64,000 nucleotides of DNA from a virus (IMGVR_UViG_3300047160_004786:20955-84954), one strand, 5' to 3'. Numbered from the stretch's first letter, positions 565 through 31,554 are shown. The notes: a model not told the origin generated them from the letters alone. Program-made: numbers and translations.

Positions 565-821
565 GGATGATCCTGGCTGCGGTGTTTTTGTTGATCAGTA
601 CGGTCTATGCGGTGGCCAGGGACGTGGCGATCATTGCGGACGATCAGCATCGGCAGGATATCATGCAAGTGCTCGATGCAGCTCTCAAGAATCAGGGAAT
701 AAACATCCTGCCCCAGGTCAATCGGGTCATCGAGATTTTGCAGAAGGCTAATACTGTGGTTGAGCAGAAAGATGACTCGACCGCACCCAAGTCAAATAAA
801 GGGATCGAGCACAAGGACTAA
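561..821 (+). CDS. small protein with Sec-type signal peptide
   Basis: ATG overlaps the upstream TGA; MRMILAAVFLLISTVYAVA is a hydrophobic leader ending A-x-A. Confidence 0.6.
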   Translation: MRMILAAVFLLISTVYAVARDVAIIADDQHRQDIMQVLDAALKNQGINILPQVNRVIEILQKANTVVEQKDDSTAPKSNKGIEHKD

Positions 822-825
822 GACG

Positions 826-1710
826 ATGCGGAAGCTGGGGTTGGCCTATGCCTTGCTGGTATCAGTGTCTACCCAGGCTCTCGCCGGGACAGGTACGATT
901 ACCGTCAAGGATTCCACTGGAGCGACGCAGACTTATACAGTGATTACCAACGGCTCGGGGTTTTTTGGGCCTATGGTGGGTGTCTGTGATGGGGCGGCAT
1001 TGGCCACGTGTGCCACGGTGGGGACGTATGGGACGGCTCCTGGTGCCGTGGCGGCACTCAACGTCAACGCAAGCGTGACCAACACGCCGGCTGTATCGCA
1101 GTCCGGCACTTGGAACGTGGGGATCACCGGGACGCCGGCAGTGACGCAGTCCGGCACCTGGACGATGCAACCTGGGAATACGGCGAATACGACACCCTGG
1201 CTGGTCAATGCCAATCAGAACGGCACGTGGTCCATGAGAACGCAGGACGGCTCCGGTAACGCCATCGGTTCGACCTCCGGTGCTCTCAATGTGAATGTCA
1301 ATAATGCGACGACGCCCGGTCCCAACACGCCGGCAAATTCTTCGCCTGTCATTCCGGCGGTCTCTACTCCTGGCAATGCGATTGCACCGGCTACTCCTGC
1401 GGGGGTCAATCTCAAGGCCAGTGCGGGACAGATCAATAGCATCGAGCTTGGGACCATTGCGTCGGGGGCTGCTTGGTTAAAGCTTTATGATTCGGCCACG
1501 GCTCCCACGTGCGGATCGGGAACGCCGGTCAAGCGGTTACTGATCCCGGTTGCATCTACGGCGGCGAACGGCGGTGGCTCGAACATTACCTTTCCATCTC
1601 CAATCAAATTTACGAACGGGATCGGCTACTGTGTTACGGGAGGGATTACGGATGCCGATACGACGGCTCTGACGGCAAACACTGTTGCTGTAAACATTGA
1701 TTGGAACTGA
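826..1710 (+). CDS. fibre-like protein with QSGTW repeats and signal peptide
   Basis: Start ATG 826 (MRKLGLAYALLVSVSTQALA); repeats AVSQSGTWNV/AVTQSGTWTM/ANQNGTWSM; C-terminal LKASAG...LKLYD.ATAP domain typical of phage structural genes. Confidence 0.6.
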   Translation: MRKLGLAYALLVSVSTQALAGTGTITVKDSTGATQTYTVITNGSGFFGPMVGVCDGAALATCATVGTYGTAPGAVAALNVNASVTNTPAVSQSGTWNVGITGTPAVTQSGTWTMQPGNTANTTPWLVNANQNGTWSMRTQDGSGNAIGSTSGALNVNVNNATTPGPNTPANSSPVIPAVSTPGNAIAPATPAGVNLKASAGQINSIELGTIASGAAWLKLYDSATAPTCGSGTPVKRLLIPVASTAANGGGSNITFPSPIKFTNGIGYCVTGGITDADTTALTANTVAVNIDWN

Positions 1711-6100: not shown

Positions 6101-6172
6101 GCTGATCAAGTCAACTATGGTTGGGTCTATGTCGGAAATGGCAATGGCTTTGCGTATGGGCATTTTAACTGA
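3119..6172 (+). CDS. GH74 (xyloglucanase-like) double beta-propeller with signal peptide and inserted beta domains
   Basis: GGGGYVTGI..NPDG...RTD, LAIDPANP..VYAG, GIEQL, FGAPAPG..YQAIY, YGWVYVG..GFAYG motifs follow the GH74 pattern; Asp-box (S.DGG.TW) repeats. Confidence 0.7.
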   Translation: MALRWMLLAIMVLLPALVQAGTWAPFQANSSSVPLNTWLPLKMGGGGYVTGIDINPDGTKLVRTDTYGAYLWTGSQWQQLVTQSAMPAANFGYAPPSGINQNGLGNGGGVYEISSAPSNSSVIYMAYAGQIFKSTNKGSTFTLTAFPSATMYSNNSAQRYTGHKLAIDPANPSIVYAGSDNNGLWFTINGGTSWTQVSSSVIPTASNDPSGNPTGYRIAFDPSSGTTGGATNRIYVNNSAGLYVSVNAGSSWSLVASSPTGCQHMVVAPTGGVVWLVDGYAPNDTNLWSYTGGTAGTWTNVGSTASYHSVAVDPANVNHIVGINTGGAINVWNGSTWTGFSTSLRAATDVPWLAVVNESYMSAGDIAFDPTGSNLLYFSQGIGVWYTNPPTVAGNVTWTSQTAGIEQLISNHLVVPNSIPVVGVWDRQLATLTNPNVYPSSLVETTMAPSIMAGWDLDWVVSSPSTICVANAWAGDPDFSGCSQNGGTTWMPFNSWGYRVSATATANNGSGLIRVTVPSTTGLTTWAAGSGSIVVLVELTPGGPSAYHTGGGTIPGFAYYPVTVVDSTHIDLQTSTYTSGTSGTGGNYLIYVPTNALTSYGALNNVVGAANSGGNIQLSFVSQQYQINNGVMACVSGVAGTTEANGCWITSSVSGGDNNNPGTVILNGSTFVHPWTSGGVIKVQVPQGGGIATSTGSNIIRVSSNNNFPYCTTDGGQTWTDISAGIATPVGVRITAASWTSANNGTLSYTTASNHNMTPGSGVGILGNAPSGYNVSGTLTTASGNTFTLTGTTNSTTYANPGTATAFGASTTDTGWGFAYYLQKHVASPDRVTPNKFYIYNYHTGLYTVSNCGTPTLVNSTIFPASGDNDFLRTVPGQAGHLFYGAGPLGSALAGHPASTQLQRSCDGGNTFSTVANIWEPIALGFGAPAPGKNYQAIYYIGWNGPVQSTSTFGIWRSTDDANNGVNGACSGGNTWTKIGDYPLGWMSGFSDIQADQVNYGWVYVGNGNGFAYGHFN

Positions 6173-6174
6173 GA

Positions 6175-9640: not shown

Positions 9641-11011
9641 ATGCATAGCCTGCTTGAGGACTATCTGCCCCTGATGGCAGCGGAGGGTCTGGGCACCGGG
9701 GGTGGCGAGGAATCTGGATCGGCACCGCCGCCCCCACCGACGGACGACGATGGAGGTGGGGGCAGGGACGAGCCGGCATCCAGGGATCCTCTCGGGGCCG
9801 ACGGTGGCGACAAGGAAGTTGGCGAGCGGGCTCGACCTTCGATCCGGCGAGCACTTACCAGAACCATCGAAGATCTGAACCGTGACGCCGGCCGGGACCG
9901 TCAGGGTCGGTTTACGAGGTCTGCCCCGGAGGAGGCTGACGGAGCCGGCACCAGGGGTCAGCGGCAAGAGCAGCCGGCCCAGGCTGAGAGGCCCGCTGCG
10001 GCCCCTGCGAGCCCCGCTGGTGAGCCCAGGTCAGAGCCCCCTGCCGGGTGGGCCAGGGAAGCTAAAGACGCATGGGCGGGGCTCCCTGAGCCTGTACGGC
10101 AGGCCACGCTGCGACGTGAGCAGGAGATGGCGGCCGGCGTCGAGCAACTCAAGCAGAGGTACGGCCTGGAGATCCAAGCTCACCGGCAGCTTGGGGATGC
10201 GGTGCGACCCTACATGGAGGACATCCGGCGGGCCGGCGTGGACCCCCACATAGGGGTGCAGCGACTGCTCCAGTGGCATCGGGATCTCCAGAGTAATCCG
10301 GCCCAGAGCATGGTCCGGCTGATGGCCATGTTCGGGCTCGATCCGCGTCAGCCGCTTGTGGGTGGGGGACCGCAGCAGCCGGCTCAGCAGCAAGTGACCG
10401 GGGTGCCGGACGAGATCAAGCCGCTGGTCGAGGCGATCAATCCGTATTTCCAGCAACAGATCAATCCATTCAGCGACCAACTCAATCAGGTCAATCAGCG
10501 ATTGGCGGCCTGGGAGCAGCAGAACGCCCAGAGCAAGCAGCGGCAGACCGAAACTCAGGTCGAGAGGTGGGGTGACGACAAGCCGTATTTCGCGGCGGTG
10601 CGGCCCCTCATGCGGGAGATTCTGATCGGGGCGGATCAGAGCGGCACGGCCGGCAGGTTCCTCGACCGGTACGGTGAGGTCGATCTCGACAAGCTCTATG
10701 GGGAGGCGGTCTGGCAACACCCGGAGGTTCGGCAGAGGATTCAGCAGGAGCAGCGGGATTACGAGCATCAGCAAGCTCAGCAAGCGGCGGCTCAGCAAGC
10801 CGCCCAGCAAGCGGCCGAGGAGAAGCGGGTGCAGGATCAGCGGAGGGCTGAGGCGGATCGGGCTCGGCGGGCCTCTGCGTCTGTGAGGCCCGGGGCTCCA
10901 GGGACGACTCCTCAGCGGAGACCTGGGGAGCAGAAGGCCCCCACCAGTGTCAGGGACTCGATTGTTCAGGCTATGCAGCAAGTCAACGAGAACCGGGGAG
11001 CACGTGTTTAA
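9641..11011 (+). CDS. capsid scaffolding protein
   Basis: Position before capsid; acidic low-complexity N-terminus, PPAGWAREAKDAW motif, Gln-rich coils, C-terminal SVRDSIVQAM helix. Confidence 0.75.
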   Translation: MHSLLEDYLPLMAAEGLGTGGGEESGSAPPPPPTDDDGGGGRDEPASRDPLGADGGDKEVGERARPSIRRALTRTIEDLNRDAGRDRQGRFTRSAPEEADGAGTRGQRQEQPAQAERPAAAPASPAGEPRSEPPAGWAREAKDAWAGLPEPVRQATLRREQEMAAGVEQLKQRYGLEIQAHRQLGDAVRPYMEDIRRAGVDPHIGVQRLLQWHRDLQSNPAQSMVRLMAMFGLDPRQPLVGGGPQQPAQQQVTGVPDEIKPLVEAINPYFQQQINPFSDQLNQVNQRLAAWEQQNAQSKQRQTETQVERWGDDKPYFAAVRPLMREILIGADQSGTAGRFLDRYGEVDLDKLYGEAVWQHPEVRQRIQQEQRDYEHQQAQQAAAQQAAQQAAEEKRVQDQRRAEADRARRASASVRPGAPGTTPQRRPGEQKAPTSVRDSIVQAMQQVNENRGARV

Positions 11012-11461: not shown

Positions 11462-12473
11462 TAAGTTTAAGTCCGCTATAAACCGGGTGAATTGCTGGGA
11501 ACTCCTTAGAGCTTCGATCACCACAGCATGGTCCGAGAGGGCGAGTGCGACGGTCGAAAAGATCGGAGATTGGACAATCAGCAGCCAAGCCAAGCTGGGG
11601 ACAAGTAGCTTGGAAGGTTCAACGACTAGGGCTGTGAGACCCCGACGATAATCGGCCCCACGAGTGCCCGGTGCCTATGCCTACAGATCACGCTGGGATC
11701 TATTCCGTAGCCAACAACGTTACTCACAAGGTATACGTTGGATCTTCAGTGAATGTGTTGAAGCGTATTCGGGAGCACATTTGGGCTCTCAAGCGTGGAG
11801 ACCATCCGAATAGGCACTTGCAGAGTGCCTGGAATAAGTACGGAGAGCATAGCTTTGAGTTTTCCGTCTTAGAGCACTGTAGCATCAGGTGGCTTGCGAA
11901 AAGGGAACAGTGGTGGATCGAAGAGTTGCAGTCTAACGGTGTGAATGGGTACAACCTTCAGCATGCCAAGAGAGGGAAGTATCCTTGTCCCAACGTTGAT
12001 GGTCACAAGATTTATTGGGACAATCTATCGGAAGACGAGAAGAGTGAGCGTGTTAAGCATCTTGTTGAACCGATAAACCGTAAGGGCAATTCTAAGCGTT
12101 TGTTATATCGATGGCGGGATCCGGAGTTCAGGGCTAAGCGAATAGCTGGCCTTAACAGGGGTAGAGAAAAAACTAACTCGAACCCTACGGATAAGATGCT
12201 GTCGGCTCTTTCTGCTGGAAGGTCCAAGGCACTAAAACGCTGGAAGACTGACCAAGAGCTAAGGGATAAGCAGCGAGCCAATAATTTGGCTCAGTGGCAA
12301 ATCCCAGAAATACGCCAAGCTAGATTAGCTGCGTTGGCTCGTGGCAGAGAGAAGACGAACGCAAAGAAAAAGGCCGATGCTGCGGCTCGTAGATTGGCTA
12401 GGCAATGATATAGTCTGGACTGGCTGGAAATCAGCCAGATGTCGGTCATAAACAGGCCGACGGTAACAGATCG
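11462..12473 (+). mobile_element. group I self-splicing intron
   Basis: Exon ends in U and intron ends in G; P1 gcggat/gtccgc with U.G; core P (gaattgctgggaac 11489), Q (aatcagcagccaag 11576), R (ggttcaacgactag 11616), S (atgatatagtctgg 12405); P9 hairpins before the 3' G. Confidence 0.9.
11677..12408 (+). CDS. intron-encoded GIY-YIG homing endonuclease
   Basis: GIYSV..N....YVGSS.N..KRIREH, HPN..LQ.AWNKYG..SFEFSVLE; basic C-terminal repeats; stop overlaps the S element. Confidence 0.9.
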   Translation: MPTDHAGIYSVANNVTHKVYVGSSVNVLKRIREHIWALKRGDHPNRHLQSAWNKYGEHSFEFSVLEHCSIRWLAKREQWWIEELQSNGVNGYNLQHAKRGKYPCPNVDGHKIYWDNLSEDEKSERVKHLVEPINRKGNSKRLLYRWRDPEFRAKRIAGLNRGREKTNSNPTDKMLSALSAGRSKALKRWKTDQELRDKQRANNLAQWQIPEIRQARLAALARGREKTNAKKKADAAARRLARQ

Positions 12474-13427
12474 AACATGAGCCGCAATAATGCTGGGCTT
12501 GTCCGAATTTCTCGTCGTGGCAATGTGAAACCAGTTTCTGGTGGAAGGACGATTGTTCAAGAGCTTAATTATGCGAACAATCAAACTTTCCAATGGTATT
12601 CGGGTTATTCGACCCTGAATATCGCACCCTCTCAGGTCTTCTCCGCTGCGGAGTTCCCGTGGCGTCAGGCGGCGGTCGCTGTCTCGATCTCGGGTCTGGA
12701 GGAACTTCAGAACTCGGGCGAGGAGGCGATCATCGATCTGCTTGAGAGCCGGGTTGCCAATGCCGAGGACACGTTCATGAACGGCCTCAGCAACGGTTTC
12801 TACGGTGATGGCAGTGTTGCCAACTCAATCGGCGGTCTTCAGTTGCTGATCTCGAACTCGCCAGCCACCGGAACGGTTGGCGGCATTTCCCGGTCGGCCT
12901 GGACGTTCTGGCAGAATCAGAGATGGTCCGCCACGACCAACGGCTCGACTGCTCTGTCCCCCTCCACGATCCAGTCGCAGATGGACGCTCTCTATGTGCT
13001 GCTGGTGCGTGGCCGGGATTATCCCGACCTGATCCTGTTCGACAACGTGCTCTACCGGTATTTCCTGCAATCGTTGCAGGCTATCCAGAGGGTGCAGTCT
13101 GACGCACCGGATTTCGTCGGGCTTGGGTATCAGACCTTGAAGTACATGAACAGTGATGTGGTACTGGACGGTGGCTTCCAGGGTCTTGCGACTGATCCTC
13201 TCCCGCCGGAAATTTCGGGCGGCAGTGCGGTCGGTGGCGTGCCTTCGACCACTGGGTTCTTCATCAATACCAAGTATCTTCACTGGCGGCCCCATAGCCG
13301 GCGGAACATGGTGCCTCTCGATCCTGATCGTTTCTCGATCAATCAGGACGCCATGATCCGGTTGCTTGGCTGGATGGGTAACCTGACGCTTTCGAACGCC
13401 TTCCTCCAGGGTCTCCTCGCGGCTTGA
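12474..13427 (+). CDS. major capsid protein, exon 2
   Basis: SGGRTIVQEL.Y, YSGY..L, SISGLEELQNSG.EAIIDLLESR, YGDG, FINTKYL motifs of podoviral capsids; spliced product 340 aa. Confidence 0.85.
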   Translation, partial: NMSRNNAGLVRISRRGNVKPVSGGRTIVQELNYANNQTFQWYSGYSTLNIAPSQVFSAAEFPWRQAAVAVSISGLEELQNSGEEAIIDLLESRVANAEDTFMNGLSNGFYGDGSVANSIGGLQLLISNSPATGTVGGISRSAWTFWQNQRWSATTNGSTALSPSTIQSQMDALYVLLVRGRDYPDLILFDNVLYRYFLQSLQAIQRVQSDAPDFVGLGYQTLKYMNSDVVLDGGFQGLATDPLPPEISGGSAVGGVPSTTGFFINTKYLHWRPHSRRNMVPLDPDRFSINQDAMIRLLGWMGNLTLSNAFLQGLLAA

Positions 13428-21227: not shown

Positions 21228-21761
21228 ATGGGTCGCAAGCTGGGAACAAAGGCTGTCAATAAGCGTGATCCGGCCTTTACCAGGGCTGTTTTAGATACGA
21301 TGCGGCTTGACCCTAAGACTGGCAGCTTGAGGTTCGAGGGGATGTACGTATCGGCCCACCTGGATATCGGCTGGAAGGGCAGTGTGGTCTCGGTCCCGGT
21401 CTCGCATGTCGTCTGGTTGGCCGCTCACGGGAGGTGGCCGGCTGAGGGGTTGCACCTCGATCACCTCGATAATGATCCACTGAATAACAAGCTGGCGAAT
21501 CTTGCGGAGGTGACGCACACCGAGAACCAGAGAAGGCGTCGAGGCCGCACTGTCAGCCATGCTTATGGGACCGGCAAATATGGCCATGGCATAAGCGTCA
21601 ACATGGATAAGCGGGATGGTCGGTTCTATGTGTCCAGGCAGATGAGCCGTGGCCACGGGAACGGCGATCTGAAGAATGTGAGGGTCTCTTTGGGGGGATT
21701 TGCCACGCTGGCGGCTGCGGAGAGCAAGGTGAGACGGGTCATTCGGAGGCTCGACCACTGA
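21228..21761 (+). CDS. free-standing HNH endonuclease
   Basis: SHVVWL..HG.WP...LDHLDNDPLNNKLANLAEVTHTEN. Confidence 0.8.
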   Translation: MGRKLGTKAVNKRDPAFTRAVLDTMRLDPKTGSLRFEGMYVSAHLDIGWKGSVVSVPVSHVVWLAAHGRWPAEGLHLDHLDNDPLNNKLANLAEVTHTENQRRRRGRTVSHAYGTGKYGHGISVNMDKRDGRFYVSRQMSRGHGNGDLKNVRVSLGGFATLAAAESKVRRVIRRLDH

Positions 21762-21940
21762 TGCCCTTCGCCAAGGTCTGTCCCAGGTGTGGGACAGCGT
21801 TCATGGCAAAGCAGCAGAAGGTCCGCTACTGCTCGCGGGTGTGCTCGTCGCATGCCGGGGGAGATCGGAGGGTAGCCGAGATCAAGGTGGAGAGGATCCG
21901 GCGGGCCATGGCGGCGGCCAAGAAGGGGAAGGGCCAGTGA
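21761..21940 (+). CDS. 59-aa zinc-finger protein (not in ORF track)
   Basis: TGATG overlap; MPFAKVCPRCGTAF...YCSRVCS. Confidence 0.6.
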   Translation: MPFAKVCPRCGTAFMAKQQKVRYCSRVCSSHAGGDRRVAEIKVERIRRAMAAAKKGKGQ

Positions 21941-22173
21941 GGGGCGTGCCAGGGCTCCAGGAGCCTCGCTGGTGAGCCTGACTGAGTTGAGGGTACATTC
22001 TAGCCTGGAGGACACCGGGCCTCTCCAGGCCGCTCCTGGAGCGTTTAAAGGGTGCATGGGCCGGCATCCTTGGACCGCTTATGAACGGGGCACTGTGCCC
22101 CCGCCCGCCCCGGCAGGATGCCTTTCTGGGAGGGGTCGATCCCCATGCTGACCGGCCCAGAGACTGGGCGGGC

Positions 22174-23331
22174 CTACGGTGTCGGCTCGTGCTCGACCGT
22201 GTAGTCGTTCGTCACCCATCCCAGTGAGGCATCACCTCGGGGGTGGGCCTTGACGTTGATCCGCTGGCCACCGCAGTGCTTGCAGCGGAGAGCATTGCCA
22301 ATCACCTCTAGCTCGTGGCCATCGCACAATGGTGACAATGGATGCCTCCAGTCTTTACGCAAGTGTGCTCGGACCATGGTGGCACGCCGCCGGGTGATGG
22401 CGATAGCCTCCCTGGCGACCCGCCTGTACCGCTTCACCGGGATGGTGAGGTGGATGATTTTGTGGTCGACAAATCGTCGCCACCGGCCATGAGCGACGTA
22501 ACCATGATCCTGATGTATGACATCAGATACCGTGACGGGAAGACAATTGATGGTCGCCAGGAGTGCCCACAAATAACGTAAGTCTGAGACCATCTCTCGG
22601 AGGGTGTGTTGTCCCTCTTGCTTGACGTATTCTTGCATTATCACTGGATCGTAGGCGGGATTGATTGTGACCGACACCGTGTCGGTCTGGTATTCCAAGA
22701 CGCCGGTCAGGAGACCGGCGAAAGTCGGTTTTACTTTCGTTTCCTTACCTTCCACGTCACGATAGAAAGTTCCTGGAAAGTCTATATCTGGTGTGGGCCA
22801 GGGAGGGGATCCCTGATCGACACGCCAAGTCCAGGCCAATGCATTGGCGTTGGGATACTCGGTTTTGACCCGTCTGCCGTCTATCCGGCCCATTCTTTCC
22901 GGGTTCCAGGCGTGCGACGAGCACTCGATGGCCATGAAGGCGGTTTCAAGCTGGGGATGCTGGAGTAGGAGCCATCCGTTGCGGTCTGGAAGCTCGGCTG
23001 GATCGAGATCGATGCCGGCTCCGTATTCCTCGACCGCACGTCTCGCCTTGGCAGCGAAATTGTACTCGATCCAAGTCACCGGGTGAGGGAGCCTTGACAT
23101 CATTCGCATGCTATCGAGCAGCAAGCGGGCCTTTTCCGCCGTCTTGCATGTCAACAGGGAAGCGTATGCGAGGTCTGCCATGTGGGCAGACATGTCATCA
23201 CCTAGGATGAACTTGCGAGCCTGGGCAATCTTGCTTGCCATAAACATCTTCTTATCTGCTTTTCGTCCAAGTCGACTGAGGCAGTACCTCATGATCTTAT
23301 CAGCCAGGGTAGGTGTGTCGTTTTTAGACAT
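22174..23331 (-). CDS. conserved phage hypothetical (C-terminal RxHLR motif, Cys/His cluster)
   Basis: Long ORF; AGAGG RBS before ATG 23331; last gene of the leftward array. Confidence 0.7.
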   Translation of the reverse strand: MSKNDTPTLADKIMRYCLSRLGRKADKKMFMASKIAQARKFILGDDMSAHMADLAYASLLTCKTAEKARLLLDSMRMMSRLPHPVTWIEYNFAAKARRAVEEYGAGIDLDPAELPDRNGWLLLQHPQLETAFMAIECSSHAWNPERMGRIDGRRVKTEYPNANALAWTWRVDQGSPPWPTPDIDFPGTFYRDVEGKETKVKPTFAGLLTGVLEYQTDTVSVTINPAYDPVIMQEYVKQEGQHTLREMVSDLRYLWALLATINCLPVTVSDVIHQDHGYVAHGRWRRFVDHKIIHLTIPVKRYRRVAREAIAITRRRATMVRAHLRKDWRHPLSPLCDGHELEVIGNALRCKHCGGQRINVKAHPRGDASLGWVTNDYTVEHEPTP

Positions 23332-23399
23332 GTTTGGTCCTCTGTTACATCGCACGTAGAGACGGCCTCTCGCACTGAGGTCGCCTCGGCTTGCGGTGC

Positions 23400-23705
23400 T
23401 CAGTCCATCCTCGCCACCTCGAACGAACCGTCGGGTTGGACGATGGCCACCCAGGCATGCAGGAACACGAGGATCCGTTCGTCCCGCAGCTTGGTCGAGG
23501 CCAGGAGCGGTGACGGTGGATCGCCTGGATACACGAGACCGTCGTCGGTGAGTTCGTGTCCCTTGAAGGGACGCCAGCCGCCGCCGTGAGCGTAACCCTC
23601 ATCGAGTTGCTCACGAGCGGGCCGGGGGTCGTTCTCGTCCAGAAAGGACGGGATCAGACCGATATGATCGATGGTGGTCTTGGGGTGATGTTTGAACCAG
23701 ATCAT
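23400..23705 (-). CDS. conserved phage early protein
   Basis: GLIPSFL...DPRPAREQ...YAHGGGW...YPGDPP...DGSFEVARMD family motif. Confidence 0.7.
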   Translation of the reverse strand: MIWFKHHPKTTIDHIGLIPSFLDENDPRPAREQLDEGYAHGGGWRPFKGHELTDDGLVYPGDPPSPLLASTKLRDERILVFLHAWVAIVQPDGSFEVARMD

Positions 23706-23938
23706 AGTTCCTTAACCCTTTCGATTTGGAGCTTGACTACCTCATAGGGTCCGGTGCAGTTCACACCGGGTGTGCCGTAGACGGCCTTGCCGTTGGTGAG
23801 TTGTCTGAATGCGTCCTTGAGTGCCAAGTCCGGCACCAGGACGAAATCACCCTTCTTGAAGGTGTTGATGACGCCGCTTGCACTCCATGTCTGAAAGTGT
23901 GCGGCCTCGCCATCGATCTTGTAGATGTATTTGGGCAT
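23702..23938 (-). CDS. small hypothetical protein
   Basis: Coupled to both neighbours; 78 aa. Confidence 0.6.
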   Translation of the reverse strand: MPKYIYKIDGEAAHFQTWSASGVINTFKKGDFVLVPDLALKDAFRQLTNGKAVYGTPGVNCTGPYEVVKLQIERVKEL

Positions 23939-23939
23939 A

Positions 23940-24143
23940 TTACCTTCCCGGGATCATGGTCCACTGACCAATGGTGTTGCTGTTGGCGTCAACGATGCTG
24001 CCGTAGATCGAATCGCCGGCAGATGGGGCTCGATTGTCTTCGATGCGTTCCGCGATTTCCCGCAGGAGACGCACCACCTCGATCCGCCGGTCGCCATTGT
24101 CGGTGAAGGCGGCATTGTAGGTCTTGAAGCTCAACTTGAACAT
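23940..24143 (-). CDS. small phage protein (FKTYNAAF family-like)
   Basis: GAGGA RBS before ATG 24143; N-terminal NAAF and C-terminal DANSNTIGQW. Confidence 0.65.
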   Translation of the reverse strand: MFKLSFKTYNAAFTDNGDRRIEVVRLLREIAERIEDNRAPSAGDSIYGSIVDANSNTIGQWTMIPGR

Positions 24144-24214
24144 CTGGTCCTCTGTTGCTAGGGTGACGTTGATCCCGCTGGAGCATGAGGTCCATCGTGC
24201 TCGCGGGAGAGATT

Positions 24215-24255
24215 GGCCCCGGTCCAATCTGTCGCCCTGGACCGGGGCCTTTTTT
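24215..24255 (+). terminator. intrinsic terminator, + orientation
   Basis: 12-bp stem GGCCCCGGTCCA/TGGACCGGGGCC followed by T6. Confidence 0.6.
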
Positions 24256-24457
24256 ATCGTTGGTCACCTACGGTGAGACCAGCCTCGATGGCTCCGTCGA
24301 TGATGGGACCGACAAACCGGGGCTCGGCGGCGATGCCGTGCTCGCCCCAGGTCAGATCGACCTCGACGTTCTCATTGAGCCACTCTCGACCGGCCTCGGA
24401 GTTGCCGTAGATGATGACGACGCTGCCGTACCATTGGACGGTGATGTCGCTAGGCAT
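24254..24457 (-). CDS. small phage protein
   Basis: AGAGGAG RBS; GSVVII...AGREWLNENV...IAAEPRF motif. Confidence 0.65.
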   Translation of the reverse strand: MPSDITVQWYGSVVIIYGNSEAGREWLNENVEVDLTWGEHGIAAEPRFVGPIIDGAIEAGLTVGDQR

Positions 24458-24523
24458 AAGGTCTCCTCTGTTACGGGTATGGCACCCACTGATGCTGCCT
24501 CTCCAAGGCAGCATCGATTGGTG

Positions 24524-24973
24524 TCAGCCGTTACGAATGAAATCGAGTGCCTCCTTTCCTGATAGAGGCATCCGTTTGGTCTCGCCGGCCCGCTTAGCCT
24601 TGAGCTTGGCGATGCGGCCTCGGGCCTTGGCCTTGCGGCGGGCCTCGGCCTTGGCCAGGATCTCGGCCCGGGCCTTGTCGTCCTCGGCGTCACCGAGGGC
24701 ACCCTCCTGGGTCCGTTGCAGGAAGACCGGGATGTCGAGCTTGGTCACGGGAGCCGGCACTGTAACAGGCTCCGGTTCCTTGCTTGGTGCCGCCTTTGCC
24801 GCCGGCTTGGGTTTGGCCGGGGCCACCTTCTCATATCGCTTGACAAGCTTGTAGAGAGCCTGGAGCTTACCGTTAACTCTAACCAGATCGTTGATGATCT
24901 TCTCGCGTTTGAGAGCGTACTTGTTAATGTCGGCAATCGCTTGCTGGTGCCGACGTTCGATCAGGGTAGCCAT
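24524..24973 (-). CDS. coiled-coil/basic protein with FtsZ C-terminal-peptide-like motif LDIPVFLQR
   Basis: AAAGGAG RBS; motif encoded at 24713-24739. Confidence 0.65.
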   Translation of the reverse strand: MATLIERRHQQAIADINKYALKREKIINDLVRVNGKLQALYKLVKRYEKVAPAKPKPAAKAAPSKEPEPVTVPAPVTKLDIPVFLQRTQEGALGDAEDDKARAEILAKAEARRKAKARGRIAKLKAKRAGETKRMPLSGKEALDFIRNG

Positions 24974-25157
24974 CCAGTATCTCCTTTCTGACAGCACGTA
25001 CCTGTTCCAACTCTTCCTCGTCAGCCTGGATTACGAGGAGGTTGTATTTGCGTCGTCGCGGATGCTTGAAGAAATCGATCCGCTTTTCAAGCTGGTCTAT
25101 TCGATGGTTGAGGCAATCTACGATCACCTCAACCGCTTCCTGAAGCGTCGGTTTCAT
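24924..25157 (-). CDS. small hypothetical protein
   Basis: GGAGG RBS just after hairpin copy A. Confidence 0.55.
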   Translation of the reverse strand: MKPTLQEAVEVIVDCLNHRIDQLEKRIDFFKHPRRRKYNLLVIQADEEELEQVRAVRKEILDGYPDRTSAPASDCRH

Positions 25158-25243
25158 TTGGTTCCCTCCGTGATGCGGCTGGAGCCCCCCATGCTCGTGC
25201 TGAGATCAGCAGAGAGGGCTCGGGTAGCATCACCTCCTTTCAA

Positions 25244-25609
25244 TCAATCCCTTCCGAAACCGAGAGGGATGTCGGCCGCCTCGGCCTCGCTTGCGAGATC
25301 CCGAATGGTGCTGATGGCACTTTCCAGGTCGCTCTCGGCACCATCGATCTCCAGGCCGCAGATAGTTTCAAGCTTTTCGCCCAGGGCGGATGAGGCGAGG
25401 TTTTCAGGAAGATTGTCCTTCCAGTCCTCAAACTCTTCTTGAATGGAACGGAGGTCCGCCAGGGCGTCAGTCAGGCGAGAGATAGCGTCCTCGATCTCCG
25501 AGGCGATGCTGTCCACCTCAGAGGCTGCTTCACGCCAGCGGTCGCCACGGGTCTGCTTCTTGCTTTTGCGAGCGGGAGCGGCAGGCGTAGTGGGGGTCTG
25601 TTCAGACAT
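25244..25609 (-). CDS. acidic coiled-coil phage protein
   Basis: EDWKDNLPENL.SSALGEKL motif; start uncertain. Confidence 0.65.
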   Translation of the reverse strand: MSEQTPTTPAAPARKSKKQTRGDRWREAASEVDSIASEIEDAISRLTDALADLRSIQEEFEDWKDNLPENLASSALGEKLETICGLEIDGAESDLESAISTIRDLASEAEAADIPLGFGRD

Positions 25610-25710
25610 GTTCGTCGCTTTCGGTTGGTTCCCGCGATGATGCGGCTGGAGCCGTCCCCGCCTCGGTTGAGGCTGGGGAGCGGGAACGGCTCGGGTCACA
25701 TCACCTCCTT

Positions 25711-25914
25711 TCAGGTCAGATGTTTCGTTCCGGCCTGGGTCCACTCGGCCGTAACGGGATCAGACACCTCGATCACGCGGGTGTCGGTGACCAGGGTCCA
25801 ACGCCAGGACAAATCCCTGACGTAGTCCTTGGCCTCCTGCTCGGTTGCAAAACGCAGAGCGTTGCCGACCCACTTGCCGGAACGATCAGCGATCACCTCG
25901 GGCTTCCAACTCAC
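25711..25914 (-). CDS. small phage protein
   Basis: SWKPEV...GKWVGNALRFATEQEA motif; GGAGG RBS. Confidence 0.65.
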   Translation of the reverse strand: MSWKPEVIADRSGKWVGNALRFATEQEAKDYVRDLSWRWTLVTDTRVIEVSDPVTAEWTQAGTKHLT

Positions 25915-26120
25915 GGTTTTCCTCCATATGTCAGGAATGCTTGCCAGTAGTCCTCGTAGTTGGGACGGTTCCAGTCACCCTTCTCCGCGTCCCAGTCGGC
26001 CTCGCCGCAGGCAAGGATGGCGGCATCGCCTTCTGCGATTTCCTCGTCGGTTGTTCCTGGCGGATGGAGTGACCAGCCGCCGTCGCCGGTATCGGACCGG
26101 CACAGAATAAAGAGGCTCAT
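25911..26120 (-). CDS. small acidic phage protein
   Basis: GGAGGA RBS before ATG 26120; stop overlaps the next start. Confidence 0.6.
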   Translation of the reverse strand: MSLFILCRSDTGDGGWSLHPPGTTDEEIAEGDAAILACGEADWDAEKGDWNRPNYEDYWQAFLTYGGKP

Positions 26121-26134
26121 TTGATCCTCCTGGC

Positions 26135-26380
26135 TCATCGACGCTTGCCCAGGGACGGCAAGCCGCCGCTCACCGTCCAAACGCTCTTATGCTTACGTCG
26201 CTTCCAGCTTGTAATTTCAGCCCGCAGGCGTTCCCATTGCTTGCGGTCAGGGTGTTTCACGTTGGCGTTGGCACCAGCTCGGCCCAACTCAATGAAGCGG
26301 GCCTCGACCAGCTGGCGGTATTCCGCCTGGGACAACGGCGGCTCGTTGAAGAGCCACTGTTTAATGTCGTTTTTGGCCAT
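26135..26380 (-). CDS. small basic protein
   Basis: GGAGAG RBS; 81 aa. Confidence 0.55.
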   Translation of the reverse strand: MAKNDIKQWLFNEPPLSQAEYRQLVEARFIELGRAGANANVKHPDRKQWERLRAEITSWKRRKHKSVWTVSGGLPSLGKRR

Positions 26381-26399
26381 ATGTCTCTCCGATAGGCTC

Positions 26400-26780
26400 T
26401 AGGACCGCCTCAGAGGCTCACTGGTGCGGTCTGGGTGGAAGGGGTAGGGCAGAGTAGGGGTCGAGGCCCCACCGCATGGGCGGGGCTCCCAGGGTGCTTT
26501 CCGAGGGTGGGCAATGTCGGTCTACTGCCGTCTCCCCGGTTGTCAGCCGGGTGCTCTTGGTTTTTGTCGAGCAGGCCGCTAGAGGCGGCCCTGGCCGAGG
26601 CCGCAGTCTGCGGTGGCCACCTGCTCGGACCTCTTCTGAGCTACACCCCCGGGAAGCACCCCGGGCTACTTGTGACCGCAGCTATCCTAGCTTCGCTGCG
26701 GCCTCGTGAGCCGGCACTAGGGCTCACCCACCCCCAGTCCTTCATCGCCGTGAGGCTCTAGAGTAGGGGGCGTAATCCGC
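26400..26780 (-). ncRNA. candidate structured non-coding RNA
   Basis: About 380 nt with no ORF on the transcribed strand; many GC hairpins and a three-way junction. Confidence 0.35.
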
Positions 26781-26824
26781 ATGGTGCGGCTGGGTCCCGC
26801 CGCCTTAGACGGGACCGGGTCGCA

Positions 26825-27091
26825 TCACTTAGGGAAACGACCGTCGCTCGGCTCGAGCCCCTCGTAGTCGAGGGGGTAAGCCCGGTCGTAGAGACTGGAC
26901 ACCTGACTGATGTCCTCATCAGCCAGATGGTAGAAATTACGGATGTCCTCGAACCAGTGGGACAACCGTCCGTCATAGCACCAGAGGCATCCCCGGTGCT
27001 GGTTTGGATGCTCGCCCGCATGCCTAGAGTGTTCGAGGGCAGTGATGCGGGCGTCCCGCACGAGGCGGGCACAGAACAGGGGGTCAAGCAT
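26825..27091 (-). CDS. small phage protein
   Basis: AGAGGAG RBS; stop TGA begins hairpin copy C. Confidence 0.6.
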   Translation of the reverse strand: MLDPLFCARLVRDARITALEHSRHAGEHPNQHRGCLWCYDGRLSHWFEDIRNFYHLADEDISQVSSLYDRAYPLDYEGLEPSDGRFPK

Positions 27092-27137
27092 TATCAGATT
27101 CTCCTCTGTTGGTTTATGTGGTGTGCAGGGTGTCGCA

Positions 27138-27383
27138 TCAGTCACCCAGATACGGGTATCTAGCGGCGTTCTCTCGCCGCCAGTATCTCCTCTCAAGCTC
27201 GATGGCCCATTTCTCGGCCGCCTTGAGAGCGTTGAACTGTTTGAGTTTGATCACCTCGCTGTCTTCACGGCGGAAGGCTGCGTATTTACGCTCACCCTTT
27301 GAGGGGTAAGCCGGATTCAGGTCGGCGTAGAACTTGGTTACCAACCGTGCGTTTTTCAGATCGTCTCTGCTATCGATTTCCAT
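27138..27383 (-). CDS. small basic phage protein
   Basis: AGAGGAG RBS directly after hairpin copy D. Confidence 0.65.
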   Translation of the reverse strand: MEIDSRDDLKNARLVTKFYADLNPAYPSKGERKYAAFRREDSEVIKLKQFNALKAAEKWAIELERRYWRRENAARYPYLGD

Positions 27384-27443
27384 CGTACTCTCTCCTCTGT
27401 TGCGGCTGGAGGGGCACGTCGCACTCGTGTCCCTCGGGTCGCA

Positions 27444-27638
27444 TCAGTCTTTCGGGCACCGCCCGTTCCAGTGGTCGAAGAAATGAGCACGGCAGTCGAA
27501 GCACGTGCTGTCGTTGTTCCCGTCGGCAAAGAACCGGTCGTCATGAAACCGGTCTCGCCCAATCCGCCACTTGGCATTGCGGGGCATCGCTTGCAATTGA
27601 TCCGCAATGTCCTGGGCGTTCACAATCAGCAATGTCAT
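27444..27638 (-). CDS. small Cys/His protein
   Basis: GGAGG RBS; CFDCRAHF motif. Confidence 0.6.
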   Translation of the reverse strand: MTLLIVNAQDIADQLQAMPRNAKWRIGRDRFHDDRFFADGNNDSTCFDCRAHFFDHWNGRCPKD

Positions 27639-27647
27639 TCGATCCTC

Positions 27648-27863
27648 CTAGTTGATCAGCTTGCCCACAACCGCATGCAGGGTGCGGGCGTCATGGCCCC
27701 ACTGGGCGGCAGCAACCCTGTCCTGCCAGTTGCTCAGCAAGTGCTCCTGCTTCTCGAAAGAGATGTTCGAGAGGGCCTCAACTACGGCTGACAGGCAGCT
27801 ATGGTCGATCATCGCCTCAAGGGCCAGTTCCTGTTCTTTGGTCAGTGTCGTCACGTTCATCAC
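27648..27863 (-). CDS. small phage protein
   Basis: LEAMID...LSAVVEALSNI..EK.EHL..NWQD motif. Confidence 0.65.
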   Translation of the reverse strand: MMNVTTLTKEQELALEAMIDHSCLSAVVEALSNISFEKQEHLLSNWQDRVAAAQWGHDARTLHAVVGKLIN

Positions 27864-27922
27864 TCCTCTGTTTGATGATCCGGCTGGAGCCCCTCGACCG
27901 GGGCTCGGGTCGTGCCACCTCC

Positions 27923-28123
27923 TCAGTAGTTGCAGCCCCAGTCGCAGCCGACACGGTCAGCCAGATGGGCGGCATAGACCTCGGCCTCTCGACCGTTATC
28001 GAACTCAACCTCGAACAGTTGGTAGTGGTCCTCGCCGGCCTGCTCCCAGCACGACCAGACCTGATAGAGGTCGTTGGCTTCCTTGGAGACCTTCACGTAT
28101 TCCACCTTCTTAAAAACTACCAT
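27923..28123 (-). CDS. small acidic phage protein
   Basis: AAGGAG RBS after hairpin copy F. Confidence 0.6.
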   Translation of the reverse strand: MVVFKKVEYVKVSKEANDLYQVWSCWEQAGEDHYQLFEVEFDNGREAEVYAAHLADRVGCDWGCNY

Positions 28124-28188
28124 CGTCGTCGCTCCTTGCTTGGTGATCCGGCTGGGCCTCGCCATCCAAACGAGGCCGGGTCGGAGCA

Positions 28189-28680
28189 TCAGGACTTGGA
28201 CTTGGTTTTAGCTACGGCCGGAACGAGGCCGAGGTAAATGAGACCGTAAGAGGTCTCGGCCGCCCTGGCCGCCTTCGCGGCATTAACAAGAGACTGCGAC
28301 CAGCCGTGGACGAAGGGCTCGTAGCCGCCCTTAGCCAACAAGGCTTCGAAGCGGTTGATCTTCTGCTGACGTTCACGAGCCGCAAACCCCTCCCACCCGC
28401 CTTCGATGTGCTTTTTAGCTTCCTCGATCTGCCCTGCGTCGTAAGACGTATCGAAATTCCAGCCTTTCGGCCGTAACGAAACGCCGGGAGTAGCAGTCGC
28501 TATCTGGACATAGTAGTCGAAGCTACCCTTATTGGCAGGAACGAACTCATAAGCATACTTGCGATCAGCCTCCTGGTCCCGCTGGACGATGATCGCATAT
28601 TTGTAGGGTCGCGGGGACTTTCTGGTCCCGACGATCTTGCCTTCCCACGTTGCGGTGTAGGTGATTGGCTTGTTTGCCAT
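28189..28680 (-). CDS. hypothetical phage protein
   Basis: AAGGAG RBS after hairpin copy G; TRKS.R.YKYA motif. Confidence 0.65.
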   Translation of the reverse strand: MANKPITYTATWEGKIVGTRKSPRPYKYAIIVQRDQEADRKYAYEFVPANKGSFDYYVQIATATPGVSLRPKGWNFDTSYDAGQIEEAKKHIEGGWEGFAARERQQKINRFEALLAKGGYEPFVHGWSQSLVNAAKAARAAETSYGLIYLGLVPAVAKTKSKS

Positions 28681-28744
28681 TGTCGTCGCTCCTTCTGGGT
28701 GATTAGGCTGGGTGCCACCCTCCAGATGGCACCGGGTCTAACCG

Positions 28745-29044
28745 TCAGACCTTGACGCCCAACAAGCGGGCCAAACGCCGCCGGCTAGCCGGGGTGACGT
28801 TCTCGGGGATGTGGAGCGAACGCTGCTCCGTCTCTCCTGTGAAGGGGTTGGCGTCGAAGGCGTAGTTGGTGAACCAACGAGGCGACCTCACCGGCCATTC
28901 GTTGGCTTCGTCAACCCGGCCGCCGACATCCTCGATGGCGTCCCGCAAGCTGACGTGCTCAGAGACGAAGCCCCGGTCGTCAGTCTCGCCGGCCTCGATA
29001 GCCTCGACCGACCAAATTTCGTAAGTGACGCTGAAGAATGCCAT
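28745..29044 (-). CDS. conserved phage protein
   Basis: FSVTYEIWS.EAIEAGETDDRGF...RSLHIPENVTPASRRRLARL motif. Confidence 0.7.
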   Translation of the reverse strand: MAFFSVTYEIWSVEAIEAGETDDRGFVSEHVSLRDAIEDVGGRVDEANEWPVRSPRWFTNYAFDANPFTGETEQRSLHIPENVTPASRRRLARLLGVKV

Positions 29045-29102
29045 GTTAGTCTCTCCTCTGTGATGTGATTGAGGTGCCCCGCTCTGTGGGCACCCTGTCG
29101 CA

Positions 29103-29333
29103 TCACTCGGCCGTCGTAGCATTGACCTCCAGAAGGAACACGTCGTGGGCGTCCTTCAGGATCGTCGGGATTGAAGCGGCACCGTAGCCCTTCTGTTTGA
29201 GGAGCTTCACGGCATGCTTGTAAGCGGCGATGCGGGTCCGGTTGAACCGGTCGCCTTTGGTGCGGGGCGTGATCTTGCCGTGGGCCGCCAGGAGGCGGTC
29301 GATGTATTCCTGTTGGATTTCGGTAAGGGTCAT
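29103..29333 (-). CDS. small phage protein
   Basis: AGAGGAG RBS after hairpin copy H. Confidence 0.6.
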   Translation of the reverse strand: MTLTEIQQEYIDRLLAAHGKITPRTKGDRFNRTRIAAYKHAVKLLKQKGYGAASIPTILKDAHDVFLLEVNATTAE

Positions 29334-29404
29334 CGTAGGCTCCTCTGTGATCTGGCTGGGTCCCGCCATCCAGACGGGACCGGGTCAAATCCTCAGACCT
29401 TTGG

Positions 29405-29644
29405 TCAAACGAGTTCGTAAGTGCGGACACACCAGATGTCTCGACCTCCATTTCGGAGACAGTCTTGCCCGCTGAATGTCTCGACCCAGCGAAGCTTGCC
29501 GGCTTCGACCAGGGCAAGGGCTGCTTCGAGATCACGCTTGCCGTAACCACGATCACGGCGAGTAGTGATATGTCCGGTGAAGACGCACACTCGGTTGGTG
29601 ACGGTGCTGACTTGTTCCAGCAACTTGATTTGGGTCTTGGTCAT
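29405..29644 (-). CDS. small phage protein
   Basis: AGAGGA RBS after hairpin copy I. Confidence 0.6.
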   Translation of the reverse strand: MTKTQIKLLEQVSTVTNRVCVFTGHITTRRDRGYGKRDLEAALALVEAGKLRWVETFSGQDCLRNGGRDIWCVRTYELV

Positions 29645-29703
29645 TGGTTGTTCCTCTGTGATCCGGCTGGGCCTCACCACTCGGATGAGGCCGGGTCGAA
29701 CCA

Positions 29704-30045
29704 TCAGTGGTTGATAACCGGAGCGGAGTTGATCCGCTTCAACACGTCGGCCGCACCGTGGCGGCGGATGGTCTCGGCAATCAGCCCCTTGGCACCCTCG
29801 TGAGCCGTGGCTCGGCGTTTGAAAGGGCTCAGTCCCTGATTGGTCAGAAACAAGGTCTTGCCTCGGTTCAGGTCGCCAAACACGAGGCCGGAAGCAAAGT
29901 GCGTCAACGACACCGGCTTGCCGTCCCTGCCATGCTGAAGGATGAACTTGACCCGCTGGCCGGCGACATCGAAGAAGGCAATCGAGCCGCTGCGAACGTC
30001 CGGCAAGCTGTCACGGCGAGCGATATTGAAGGTGATGGTAGGCAT
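29704..30045 (-). CDS. hypothetical phage protein
   Basis: AGAGGAG RBS after hairpin copy J. Confidence 0.65.
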   Translation of the reverse strand: MPTITFNIARRDSLPDVRSGSIAFFDVAGQRVKFILQHGRDGKPVSLTHFASGLVFGDLNRGKTLFLTNQGLSPFKRRATAHEGAKGLIAETIRRHGAADVLKRINSAPVINH

Positions 30046-30102
30046 TGTCGTTCTCCTCTGTGTTTCGGCTGAGGTCCACCGAGATGGACCTGGGTCGAAG
30101 CA

Positions 30103-30357
30103 TCAGGCATCGATAGCCAGAGCAATCTGCTCAAGCTCATCCCGAATGGTGTAGAGAGCTTGCAGCCGTTTCTCGTGCTGGCTGCGAGCCAAGGGGAAGG
30201 CTTCGTTTCCCTGCACGTAGTAGTCACGAGCGTTAGGCGAGCATTTCTGCACCGCATCGGTAGCGTCGGTCAGGGCTTCAAGAGCCTTGATGAGGTCTTG
30301 AAGCAAGCTCTCACGAGACGTGCCGTTCAGGTGGATGGTCGGGATAGCCAAGGTCAT
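30103..30357 (-). CDS. first gene of the leftward array, conserved phage protein
   Basis: PTIHLNGTS...PNARDYY.QG motif; GGAGGAG RBS. Confidence 0.7.
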   Translation of the reverse strand: MTLAIPTIHLNGTSRESLLQDLIKALEALTDATDAVQKCSPNARDYYVQGNEAFPLARSQHEKRLQALYTIRDELEQIALAIDA

Positions 30358-30373
30358 TTCGGTTCTCCTCCGT

Positions 30374-30477
30374 GTGCTGATCGAGGACGCCCGTTCGAGC
30401 TAGCCTGATGGACAGCCCCTTGCCGGCTAGGTCAGTGTGGCTCCGTATCAGTGCCCGGTAGCGTCCTCGATCAGCAC
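30374..30477. repeat. perfect 17-bp inverted repeat enclosing inner hairpins
   Basis: gtgctgatcgaggacgc 30374-90 and gcgtcctcgatcagcac 30461-77. Confidence 0.8.
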
Positions 30478-30508
30478 AAATGAGAAAGGCCGGGGAACCG
30501 CCCCGGCC
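30478..30508 (-). terminator. terminator-like hairpin in the early leader
   Basis: GGCCGGGG/CCCCGGCC stem followed on the minus strand by TTTCTCATTT. Confidence 0.45.
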
Positions 30509-30919
30509 ACCTTCAGATCAGATGCCCTACTGCAACAGCGGTCGTAACGGGGTCTGATGTCCCCTGCCGCACTACGTCGTCGCTTATTCCCGCCGTCGGG
30601 ATACGCCCGATATTCGCTCCTGATTTCCACGGTCCTCTTGGGCCACAGTCTTACGCCGTAGGGCAAAATTCATTCTCAACTCAGTCAGGACTTTCATCCC
30701 TCACTGGCCCCATGAGCCCCTTCCGGGAACCAAGGTTTAGACCGGTGTGACGCGGCCTTGGCTGGACCTCAGACGAGGACCCCGTCGTGTACACCCGGGC
30801 GGTTTTCCGCTTCACGGGGACCCATATAGGGGGCTCGCCACGTGGGACCCTAGTCCCTTCTGCTACCGCAGGTTCAGATGCTGGGCTGGAAAAAGTCCTG
30901 TTCGTCCGTCGTTGAATAA

Positions 30920-30948
30920 CTTGTAGGCGATATTCGGGGGGCCGTCAA
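30920..30948 (-). promoter_or_regulatory. leftward sigma70-like promoter
   Basis: TTGACG-N17-TACAAG on the minus strand. Confidence 0.55.
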
Positions 30949-30952
30949 ACCC

Positions 30953-30980
30953 TATTTCGGTATTTTCCGGTATTTTTCCG
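30953..30980 (+). promoter_or_regulatory. three imperfect direct repeats between divergent promoters (candidate operator)
   Basis: tatttcgg / tattttccgg / tatttttccg. Confidence 0.45.
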
Positions 30981-30983
30981 CAT

Positions 30984-31013
30984 TTGACTACACAGAAGCG
31001 TGAGTGGTAGGCT
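30984..31013 (+). promoter_or_regulatory. rightward sigma70-like promoter
   Basis: TTGACT-N18-TAGGCT upstream of the RHH gene. Confidence 0.5.
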
Positions 31014-31033
31014 GGGGGTCCGAAAGGAGTGTC

Positions 31034-31274
31034 AATGGACCAGCAAATCGCGATGAAACGGCCACAAGTGGTGCCTGTGAAGCGGCCTCGGGGGCGTCCG
31101 CCGGGGGATTCGACCCAGGTCAACGTCTCGATCCCCCGGGCTCAGCTCGACGACCTCGATGCCTGGATCAGGAAGCAGGAGCGGCCTATCGGGCATCCAG
31201 AGGCGATACGAAGGCTGATCGCCCAGACGTGCGGAGGACTGAGCAAGCGAAGGAGAAGGCGGCGTGAGCTTTAA
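31034..31274 (+). CDS. ribbon-helix-helix (Arc/CopG-like) transcriptional regulator
   Basis: RGRPP..STQVNVSIP..QLDDLDAW......HPEAIRRLI; AAGGAG RBS. Confidence 0.7.
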
Positions 31275-31554
31275 GCCGGGAGACAAGGTGGTGTGTGTGG
31301 ATGCCTCCCCGACGACGTGCCTGGGCCAACGGGAGCTTGTCGAGGGCACCGTCTACACGGTTGAAGCGACCGGCTGTCGGTTTCTGTGCAGTGTCGAGTA
31401 TCCCAGAGCGGCCCCACTCCCCAGGCCCCTGCCGTGTGTAATCCTGCGGGAAGTTGGCGGAGTGTGCTGCGAGTATTTTCCGGCCAGGAGGTTCAAGCCG
31501 GCGACCGACATTTCGATGTTCCATAAAATGCTGAGTGAGAGGGAGAGGGTGTGA
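31264..31554 (+). CDS. SH3-like small phage protein
   Basis: FKPGDKVVCVD...L.EG.VYTV...PARRFKP motif. Confidence 0.6.
   Translation: MSFKPGDKVVCVDASPTTCLGQRELVEGTVYTVEATGCRFLCSVEYPRAAPLPRPLPCVILREVGGVCCEYFPARRFKPATDISMFHKMLSERERV

Follow-up and report, generated by a model that had tools for sequence, protein, structure and literature searches.

A strongly covarying RNA hairpin family punctuates a small-gene array in an uncultured soil phage and recurs in other viral or metagenome records

In the early region of phage T7, RNase III sites lie between the cistrons of a polycistronic transcript, and in integrons promoter-less cassettes are followed by attC sites, which often hold the stop codon within their 5′ end and whose cores follow the consensus RYYYAAC/GTTRRRY. 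Other repeated intergenic elements of phages include the PeSLs of T4-type phages, each a strong sigma70-like promoter with a terminator stem-loop (PMC2839356, PMC4122927), and, as summarized in PMC7953290, the CR3 and CR4 repeats of cluster M mycobacteriophages with their upstream stem-loops. Here we describe an RNA hairpin that recurs between small genes in the virus record IMGVR_UViG_3300047160_004786 of IMG/VR (84,954 bp; 92% complete; end repeats absent). The window analyzed, 64,000 nucleotides long, comprises bases 20955–84954 of this record, and positions below are counted from its first letter; its source is an uncultured tailed phage from soil. The hairpin represents a well-supported, strongly covarying structured RNA family that is uncatalogued in Rfam.

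The window contains the bare motif GACCCR..YCAGCC 13 times, a six-fold excess over the 2.1 occurrences expected, and 0 of 100 shuffles reached this count. Chance is thereby excluded, and the ten minus-strand hairpins that a preliminary description of the window had located were all recovered; with a hairpin as a further requirement, strict scanning of all 84,954 bp of the genome found copies in this array only. All ten are sense-oriented and fold to one shape (z-scores −1.35 to −5.4), a hairpin of roughly 45–70 nt. Its lower stem, first described as 2–5 bp, actually spans about 7 bp, or 7–8 imperfect pairs, with a UGAUGCG-like 5′ arm and a 3′ arm reading CGCAUCA(C). Above it lies the internal loop ACCC/CAGC, which resolves into A·C, C–G, C·A and C·C and is mostly unpaired around one central pair, followed by an upper stem of 7 to more than 14 bp and an apical loop of 4–10 nt or a branched top. 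Together, lower stem, loop and upper stem amount to 18–25 bp-equivalents, about two helical turns. The register to the flanking genes is fixed: in six of the ten copies the upstream gene stops at the TGA of the 5′ arm or at one placed 3 nt outside it, and in other phages, too, most copies have the stop codon within the lower stem or at its foot, while the ribosome-binding site (RBS) of the next gene follows within about 20–40 nt and the start codon 20–39 nt past the start of the 3′ arm. The array and its hairpins are listed below, with scores from covariance models built for the element (R1 where indicated).

22174–30357, minus strand: leftward array of 22 small genes, g1–g22; function unassigned; punctuated by hairpins
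30374–30477, minus strand: leader stem, a perfect 17–19-bp inverted repeat (GUGCUGAUCGAGGACGC and its complement), 30477–30461 with 30390–30374
30059–30104, minus strand: hairpin copy 1, between g1 and g2; 57 bits (R1); g1 UGA stop (30103–30105) at the 5′ foot
29657–29705, minus strand: hairpin copy 2, between g2 and g3; 62.4 bits
29346–29394, minus strand: hairpin copy 3, between g3 and g4; model hit; stop codon 19 nt upstream of the loop
29042–29105, minus strand: divergent eleventh copy, between g4 and g5; weak model hit (E 0.09); fold z −3.9
28698–28746, minus strand: hairpin copy between g5 and g6; model hit and fold
28142–28190, minus strand: hairpin copy between g6 and g7; 63.2 bits
27874–27919, minus strand: hairpin copy between g7 and g8; model hit and fold
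27396–27448, minus strand: hairpin copy with a 10-bp upper stem, between g9 and g10; model hit; z −4.8
27089–27140, minus strand: remnant between g10 and g11; only the 5′ flank UGAUGCGAC(A)CCC is left and the hairpin is absent
26780–26829, minus strand: hairpin copy after g11; 57.7 bits; followed by a 413-nt structured non-coding stretch, not by an RBS
25636–25705, minus strand: long-stem copy with a 13-bp upper stem and branched top, between g14 and g15; z −5.4
25169–25234, minus strand: long-stem copy between g15 and g16; model hit and fold

Four further slots had been proposed to hold degenerate versions. This held for 29042–29105, where a lower stem UGAUG/CAUCA and an 8-bp upper stem enclose a different internal loop, but not for 27089–27140, which has no hairpin, or for the junctions near 24461 and 23341, which carry other hairpins that the model does not recognize.

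Both stems covary, as had been proposed. In alignments of 10, 23 and 40 copies, all seven modeled pairs of the upper stem change on both sides; its cells are 98.6–98.9% paired, a share that falls to 30–45% if the partner column is shifted, and in 500 shuffles the observed covariation score was never reached. The lower helix is 85% paired, with compensatory changes at three of its pairs. The 4 × 4 internal loop had been said never to change; this is true within this phage but not among its relatives, in which ACCU/UAGC, ACCU/CAGC, ACACU/CAGC and AUCU/UAAC also occur. The central C–G pair of the loop is replaced by U–A, a compensatory change, in two copies (AUCU/UAAC), and its last position is always a pyrimidine–pyrimidine mismatch (C·C, U·U or U·C). 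The variable upper stems comprise 361 Watson–Crick pairs, 27 sense-strand G·U pairs and 3 A·C pairs, a 27:3 split (two-sided binomial ~1e-5) in which the count is inflated by shared ancestry, loop-closing pairs and mutation bias. This excess of G·U over A·C on the sense strand indicates that selection acts on the transcribed strand, as expected of the cis-acting RNA element originally suggested. Given this asymmetry and the fixed register to stop codon and RBS, the element very probably works in mRNA.

Pattern scans (two of IMG/VR, one of JGI metagenomes), filtered by the covariance models R1 and R2, extended the family to 40 copies, of which 39 are distinct, across 18 viral or metagenome records, this phage included (G+C 56–66%). 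The other records hold one to four copies each, and ten is the maximum seen. No Rfam family matches the hairpins at the gathering threshold or overlaps them at E ≤ 5, in agreement with the initial impression that the motif was undescribed. In INPHARED, BLASTN with the array gave no match and with a single element chance hits only, and BPP-1 and Caulobacter RapA are without the element. A pattern scan of 185,579 bacterial species genomes yielded no real member of the hairpin family among the matches listed (at least 120). Relatives of g22 were absent from IMG/VR; those of the terminase are 5–25-kb fragments only, and the terminase similarity is too distant to indicate a host. The terminase of a group of related carriers (the G001 group) loosely resembles that of Rauchvirus-like phages of Proteobacteria.

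Full hairpin copies occupy 10 of the 21 array junctions. Junctions that lack a hairpin join overlapping or tightly spaced, coupled genes, and the hairpins thus delimit units of one to three genes. A non-coding leader of ~640 nt lies upstream of the array, with plus-strand genes diverging from it; from this layout, the array is probably early. On the minus strand between 21000 and 33000, a scan covering sigma70-like promoters called none; the array also lacks internal terminator-like sites on this strand, and no hairpin copy is followed by a T-run or U-tract. Within the leader (30374–30960, minus strand), a promoter-like TTGACG-17-TACAAG at 30948–30920 was read by eye and was not called by the scan, and a terminator-like hairpin with a U-run lies at 30508–30478. 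The leader stem ends just ahead of the g1 RBS and is a possible first processing site of the array; together, the leader features may amount to an attenuator, or to a distinct small RNA with a processing stem behind it. The 413-nt non-coding stretch directly 3′ of the copy at 26780–26829 (26378–26790, minus strand) folds with −199.8 kcal/mol (z −4.8 versus shuffles), has no Rfam or tRNA match and is, from its predicted fold, a candidate structured RNA. In the spacer between g18 and g19, a GC-rich plus-strand hairpin (24234–24248) with a TTTTTT T-run extending to ~24258 lies antisense to the array, and on the sense strand an A-run precedes it; it may terminate antisense transcription.

Elsewhere, the phage encodes a large terminase, an ERF annealase, a YqaJ exonuclease, an SNF2 helicase, an MT-A70 methylase, tail fibers and a weak portal-like match, and a Pfam scan of ten array genes (g1–g10) matched no family. 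The sole Rfam hit of the window at the gathering threshold, a group I intron (RF00028; 11380–12438, plus strand; 55.3 bits, E 2.6e-11) with a 245-residue open reading frame inside (11671–12408) is flanked by open reading frames at 9641–11011 and 12477–13427 and therefore probably interrupts a phage gene. DNA of the phage is present at low depth in many soil metagenomes; the sequencing runs that contain the stretch are soil-metagenome DNA only, with no RNA runs listed, and contigs from four runs across 21500–31500 consist of short, identical pieces, none of which has a joint at a hairpin.

What might read the element was sought among the proteins of its carriers. An all-against-all comparison of proteins from nine carrier records (BLASTP, 1e-6) found none that all nine share: G001, G005, G008 and L152 are related phages, and this phage (G000) shares with G003 and G004 the SNF2 helicase only. 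An RNase III domain is absent from every carrier, giant N4-type polymerases were found in none, and the tyrosine recombinase family PF00589 is absent from this phage, which is 92% complete, and from the complete genomes G004 and G005. With no shared protein, RNase III or integrase, a host factor, or the RNA acting alone, is the most likely reader suggested by the sequences. Several specific signals were rejected. An N4-type hairpin promoter was ruled out with neither a giant virion RNA polymerase nor any other shared protein present, and a SECIS or read-through signal by downstream genes that lie in varying frames (spacers of 57, 59, 71, 64, 65 nt and so on). A likeness to the 3′ end of 16S rRNA (GGAUCAC) is confined to copies of this phage and was judged coincidental. 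The apical loops of several of these copies (29346–29394, 28698–28746 and 28142–28190, minus strand) read UCUGGAUGG, UCUGGAGGG or UUUGGAUGG, and their GGA, ~30 nt upstream of the RBS GGAG, has the geometry of a CsrA/RsmA dimer site; CsrA-type GGA loops are nevertheless unconserved in relatives and were discarded as an explanation.

By analogy with the T7 sites, the elements may well be intercistronic RNase III-type processing and stabilizer signals that serve secondarily as cassette junctions, and this is the explanation that we tentatively favor. On this reading the hairpin acts in cis, as a sense-strand mRNA structure within a long transcript that is polycistronic and probably early, and a host double-strand-specific RNase III-type endoribonuclease would cut at or near the internal loop. 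The upper hairpin would remain on the upstream cistron as an exonuclease-blocking 3′ end, whereas the freed 3′ arm (CGCAUCA + GCGG) would refold as a small hairpin at the new 5′ end, just before the RBS, giving separately stable mono- or oligocistronic messages. Since the same 30–50-nt junction is repeated, it would also be a substrate for homologous recombination, by which single gene cassettes could be inserted or deleted.

The proposed refolding draws on the 3′ arm of the relatives, in which a nearly invariant CGCAUCA is followed by (N)GCGG, so that the arm can pair either with the 5′ arm or with itself (CCGC-loop-GCGG). This small-hairpin option exists in 30 of the 40 copies, 13 of which are affected by ascertainment bias. 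In full-length folds the long hairpin usually wins, but when a cut at the 3′ side of the loop is simulated, most relatives and two of the ten copies of this phage form a small hairpin of 4–5 bp (−6 to −8 kcal/mol), set two bases from the new 5′ terminus; a third copy of this phage forms a weaker, 3-bp version. The modeled folds suggest one of two roles for the small hairpin: protecting a 5′ end that processing has generated, or acting as a switch that the ribosome throws on termination. In G001, small hairpin and RBS are also found at two junctions that lack a canonical copy of the element and that appear to follow a hairpin of another type. This second type, seen in the G001 group, reads GGGCGGG..loop..CCCGCCCCGA(G/C)GA, often with a GUUUAAAC loop, and is found at further junctions within these arrays; both types have in common a UGA foot and the small CCGCAUCAG(U)GCGG hairpin.

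L134 (G001), ~3700–3760, 4140–4190 and 4740–4790, minus strand: second hairpin type
L300, 350–395: second hairpin type

The proposed secondary role as cassette junction is illustrated by the relatives. Four phages with homologous structural genes carry wholly different small genes around their copies, and in one clean case, found in relatives only, the metagenome contig L300 reads A–junction–B where G001 reads A′–junction–X–junction–B′, X being ~190 codons long. The two are homologous up to the start codon of X and again from within the repeated leader, and judged from these sequences the insertion is the product expected of unequal homologous exchange between repeated junctions. The original suggestion of exchangeable cassettes thus finds support in relatives, in so far as a one-gene insertion is bounded by junctions, whereas an integron-like site-specific system is unlikely with no tyrosine recombinase in this phage or in the two complete carrier genomes. 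We regard cassette exchange as a consequence of the repeats and not as their primary function.

Several observations weigh against processing of this kind. The small alternative hairpin is missing in seven of the ten copies of this phage, the lower stem is mismatched in ~15% of cells, and the shortest copies, with a 7-bp upper and an imperfect 7-bp lower stem, are near the lower limit for E. coli RNase III. The lower stem would also be melted by any ribosome that terminates at the UGA within it, in competition with cleavage. The conserved letters of the relatives were partly imposed by the search patterns, a bias of which the extra copies found by the model in the same contigs, and all stem covariation, are free. 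The likeness to T7 is one of analogy and not of homology, because the family model does not match the T7 sites (R2 against T7 400–8000: at most 9 bits, E at least 0.5; no sequence relationship). Finally, the antisense strand folds more stably (−657 versus −519 kcal/mol, summed over 22 regex-collected candidates of which three are chance matches outside the family), because the A·C and C·A of the loop turn into G·U there. The loop pattern is itself no argument for the antisense strand, since A·C is the sole single-transition mismatch that opens the sense-strand helix, and in view of the 27:3 asymmetry in the variable stems the antisense was set aside as the functional strand.

The same features could be read without any cleavage. 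The hairpins might be uncleaved punctuation of the RNA, acting as 3′-exonuclease barriers or insulators and/or as a ribosome-gated two-state junction in which termination at the UGA melts the lower stem, the 3′ arm refolds by the RBS and the next cistron is coupled to the previous one. This is possible, if on balance doubtful: the stop codon in or at the foot of the lower stem, the conservation of two mutually exclusive pairings of the 3′ arm, the seemingly ‘deliberate’ imperfection of the lower stem and the G001 junctions that have small hairpin and RBS but no canonical copy of the element (at least two of which follow a GGGCGGG-type hairpin) all fit such a role, but a simple barrier would need neither a conserved internal loop nor a conserved lower-stem sequence. 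The RBS, moreover, lies outside both structures, so that there is no obvious occlusion switch, and the tightly coupled genes of the same array merely overlap, with no hairpin between them. A more far-reaching version, in which a ribosome-gated RNA switch doubles as a portable cassette boundary, at which single genes pass between unrelated soil phages by homologous recombination and with no need of an integrase, seems unlikely on the sequences at hand; each ribosome terminating at the UGA in the lower stem would flip the 3′ arm into the small hairpin beside the RBS, and the flip would set the processing, stability or translation of the next gene. Recognition in trans, by an RNA-binding regulator of the host or by a phage protein, small and fast-evolving, that reads the loop and lower stem (an antiterminator or translational regulator, for example), would account for an asymmetric loop sequence kept across unrelated phages while the stems vary, and for loop letters that stay fixed where purely structural pairs would drift. 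We consider it quite unlikely, as the comparison of carriers yielded no common protein cluster, ten sites per operon are unlike nut or put antitermination sites, and the CsrA-like GGA motifs are not kept in relatives; the phage protein-binding or antitermination site envisaged in the preliminary description accordingly finds no candidate protein.

At the DNA level, the element could primarily be a recombination site, either an attC-like folded single strand or a PeSL-like homology patch. Such a site would leave behind small ORFans that lack promoters and that each precede an imperfect palindrome, conserved at its ends and variable at its center, as well as the cassette insertion at junctions in relatives and the unrelated flanking genes of otherwise related phages. 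It would also fit a G001 junction that was first read as a 5′-truncated copy with the loop of the neighboring copy, although this junction appears to belong to the second hairpin type. Yet a tyrosine recombinase is missing from this phage and from two complete carriers, attC core sites are absent, the asymmetry between G·U and A·C points to RNA, and a fixed register with stop codon and RBS is a feature of translation; homologous recombination between any repeated junctions would, in addition, yield the same insertions and deletions as a by-product. A primary DNA function is therefore improbable. Least fitting are attenuators or terminators without a U-tract (‘I-shaped’) and RNA polymerase pause hairpins: stable GC-rich hairpins do stand directly after stop codons, but with a T-run in no copy, with ten in series that would silence the distal genes, and with a loop and lower stem conserved where termination needs neither, this is very improbable.

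Should the hairpins prove to be processing sites, unrelated soil phages would punctuate their messages in the manner of T7, and operon design would gain a compact insulator of natural origin. Gated or cassette junctions would bear on how expression stays even across the small early genes (for host takeover or anti-defense), which form large sets and are rapidly shuffled, and a gated junction that doubled as a cassette boundary would be a phage counterpart of the integron, working at both the RNA and the DNA level. The fixed register is unusual in that it puts a stop codon within the stem and sets a competing small hairpin beside the RBS, and the covariance model provides a way to find such arrays.

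Among described systems, attC sites of integrons resemble the element: they, too, are imperfect palindromes placed after a promoter-less cassette, and in both the paired ends are conserved, the central spacer is unpaired and the top varies. They differ in that no IntI-type recombinase is found here and that the strand asymmetry fits RNA; RYYYAAC/GTTRRRY cores are absent, and the conserved ends of the element read UGAUGCG/CGCAUCA. Like the junctions described here, PeSLs are repeated intergenic motifs that flank ORFans of a plastic region and act as crossover points for gene gain and loss (PMC2839356, PMC4122927), whereas the present array has neither an internal promoter-like site on that strand nor a U-tract. 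The CR3 and CR4 repeats likewise combine short conserved repeats with stem-loops between the many small genes of one genome arm, and gene insertions there bring a repeat copy with them (PMC7953290); compared by description, they differ in sequence, host clade and architecture.

The closest likeness in architecture was sought in T7, of which five early intergenic regions were folded, at the presumed positions of R0.3, R0.5, R1, R1.1 and R1.3 as checked against annotated gene ends. In the T7 folds, a lower stem of 6 bp (UGAUAG/UUAUCA) leads through an internal loop to an upper stem of ~10 bp, and an RBS lies downstream; the internal loop of R0.5, as read from the fold, has few unpaired bases per side. 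The letters of the loop differ between the two systems, the length of the upper stem varies here, and the present family spans unrelated phages instead of one lineage and adds a conserved alternative hairpin; cleavage is proven in T7 and proposed here by analogy. Both are nonetheless intercistronic elements of a polycistronic early transcript (probably early in the present case), built of lower stem, internal loop, upper stem and small apical loop, with about two turns of helix broken by the internal loop. In R0.5 and R1, as in many of the copies described here, the upstream UGA stop supplies the first bases of the lower stem and an RBS follows within tens of nucleotides, and the leader stem before the g1 RBS resembles R0.3 ahead of the first gene of T7.

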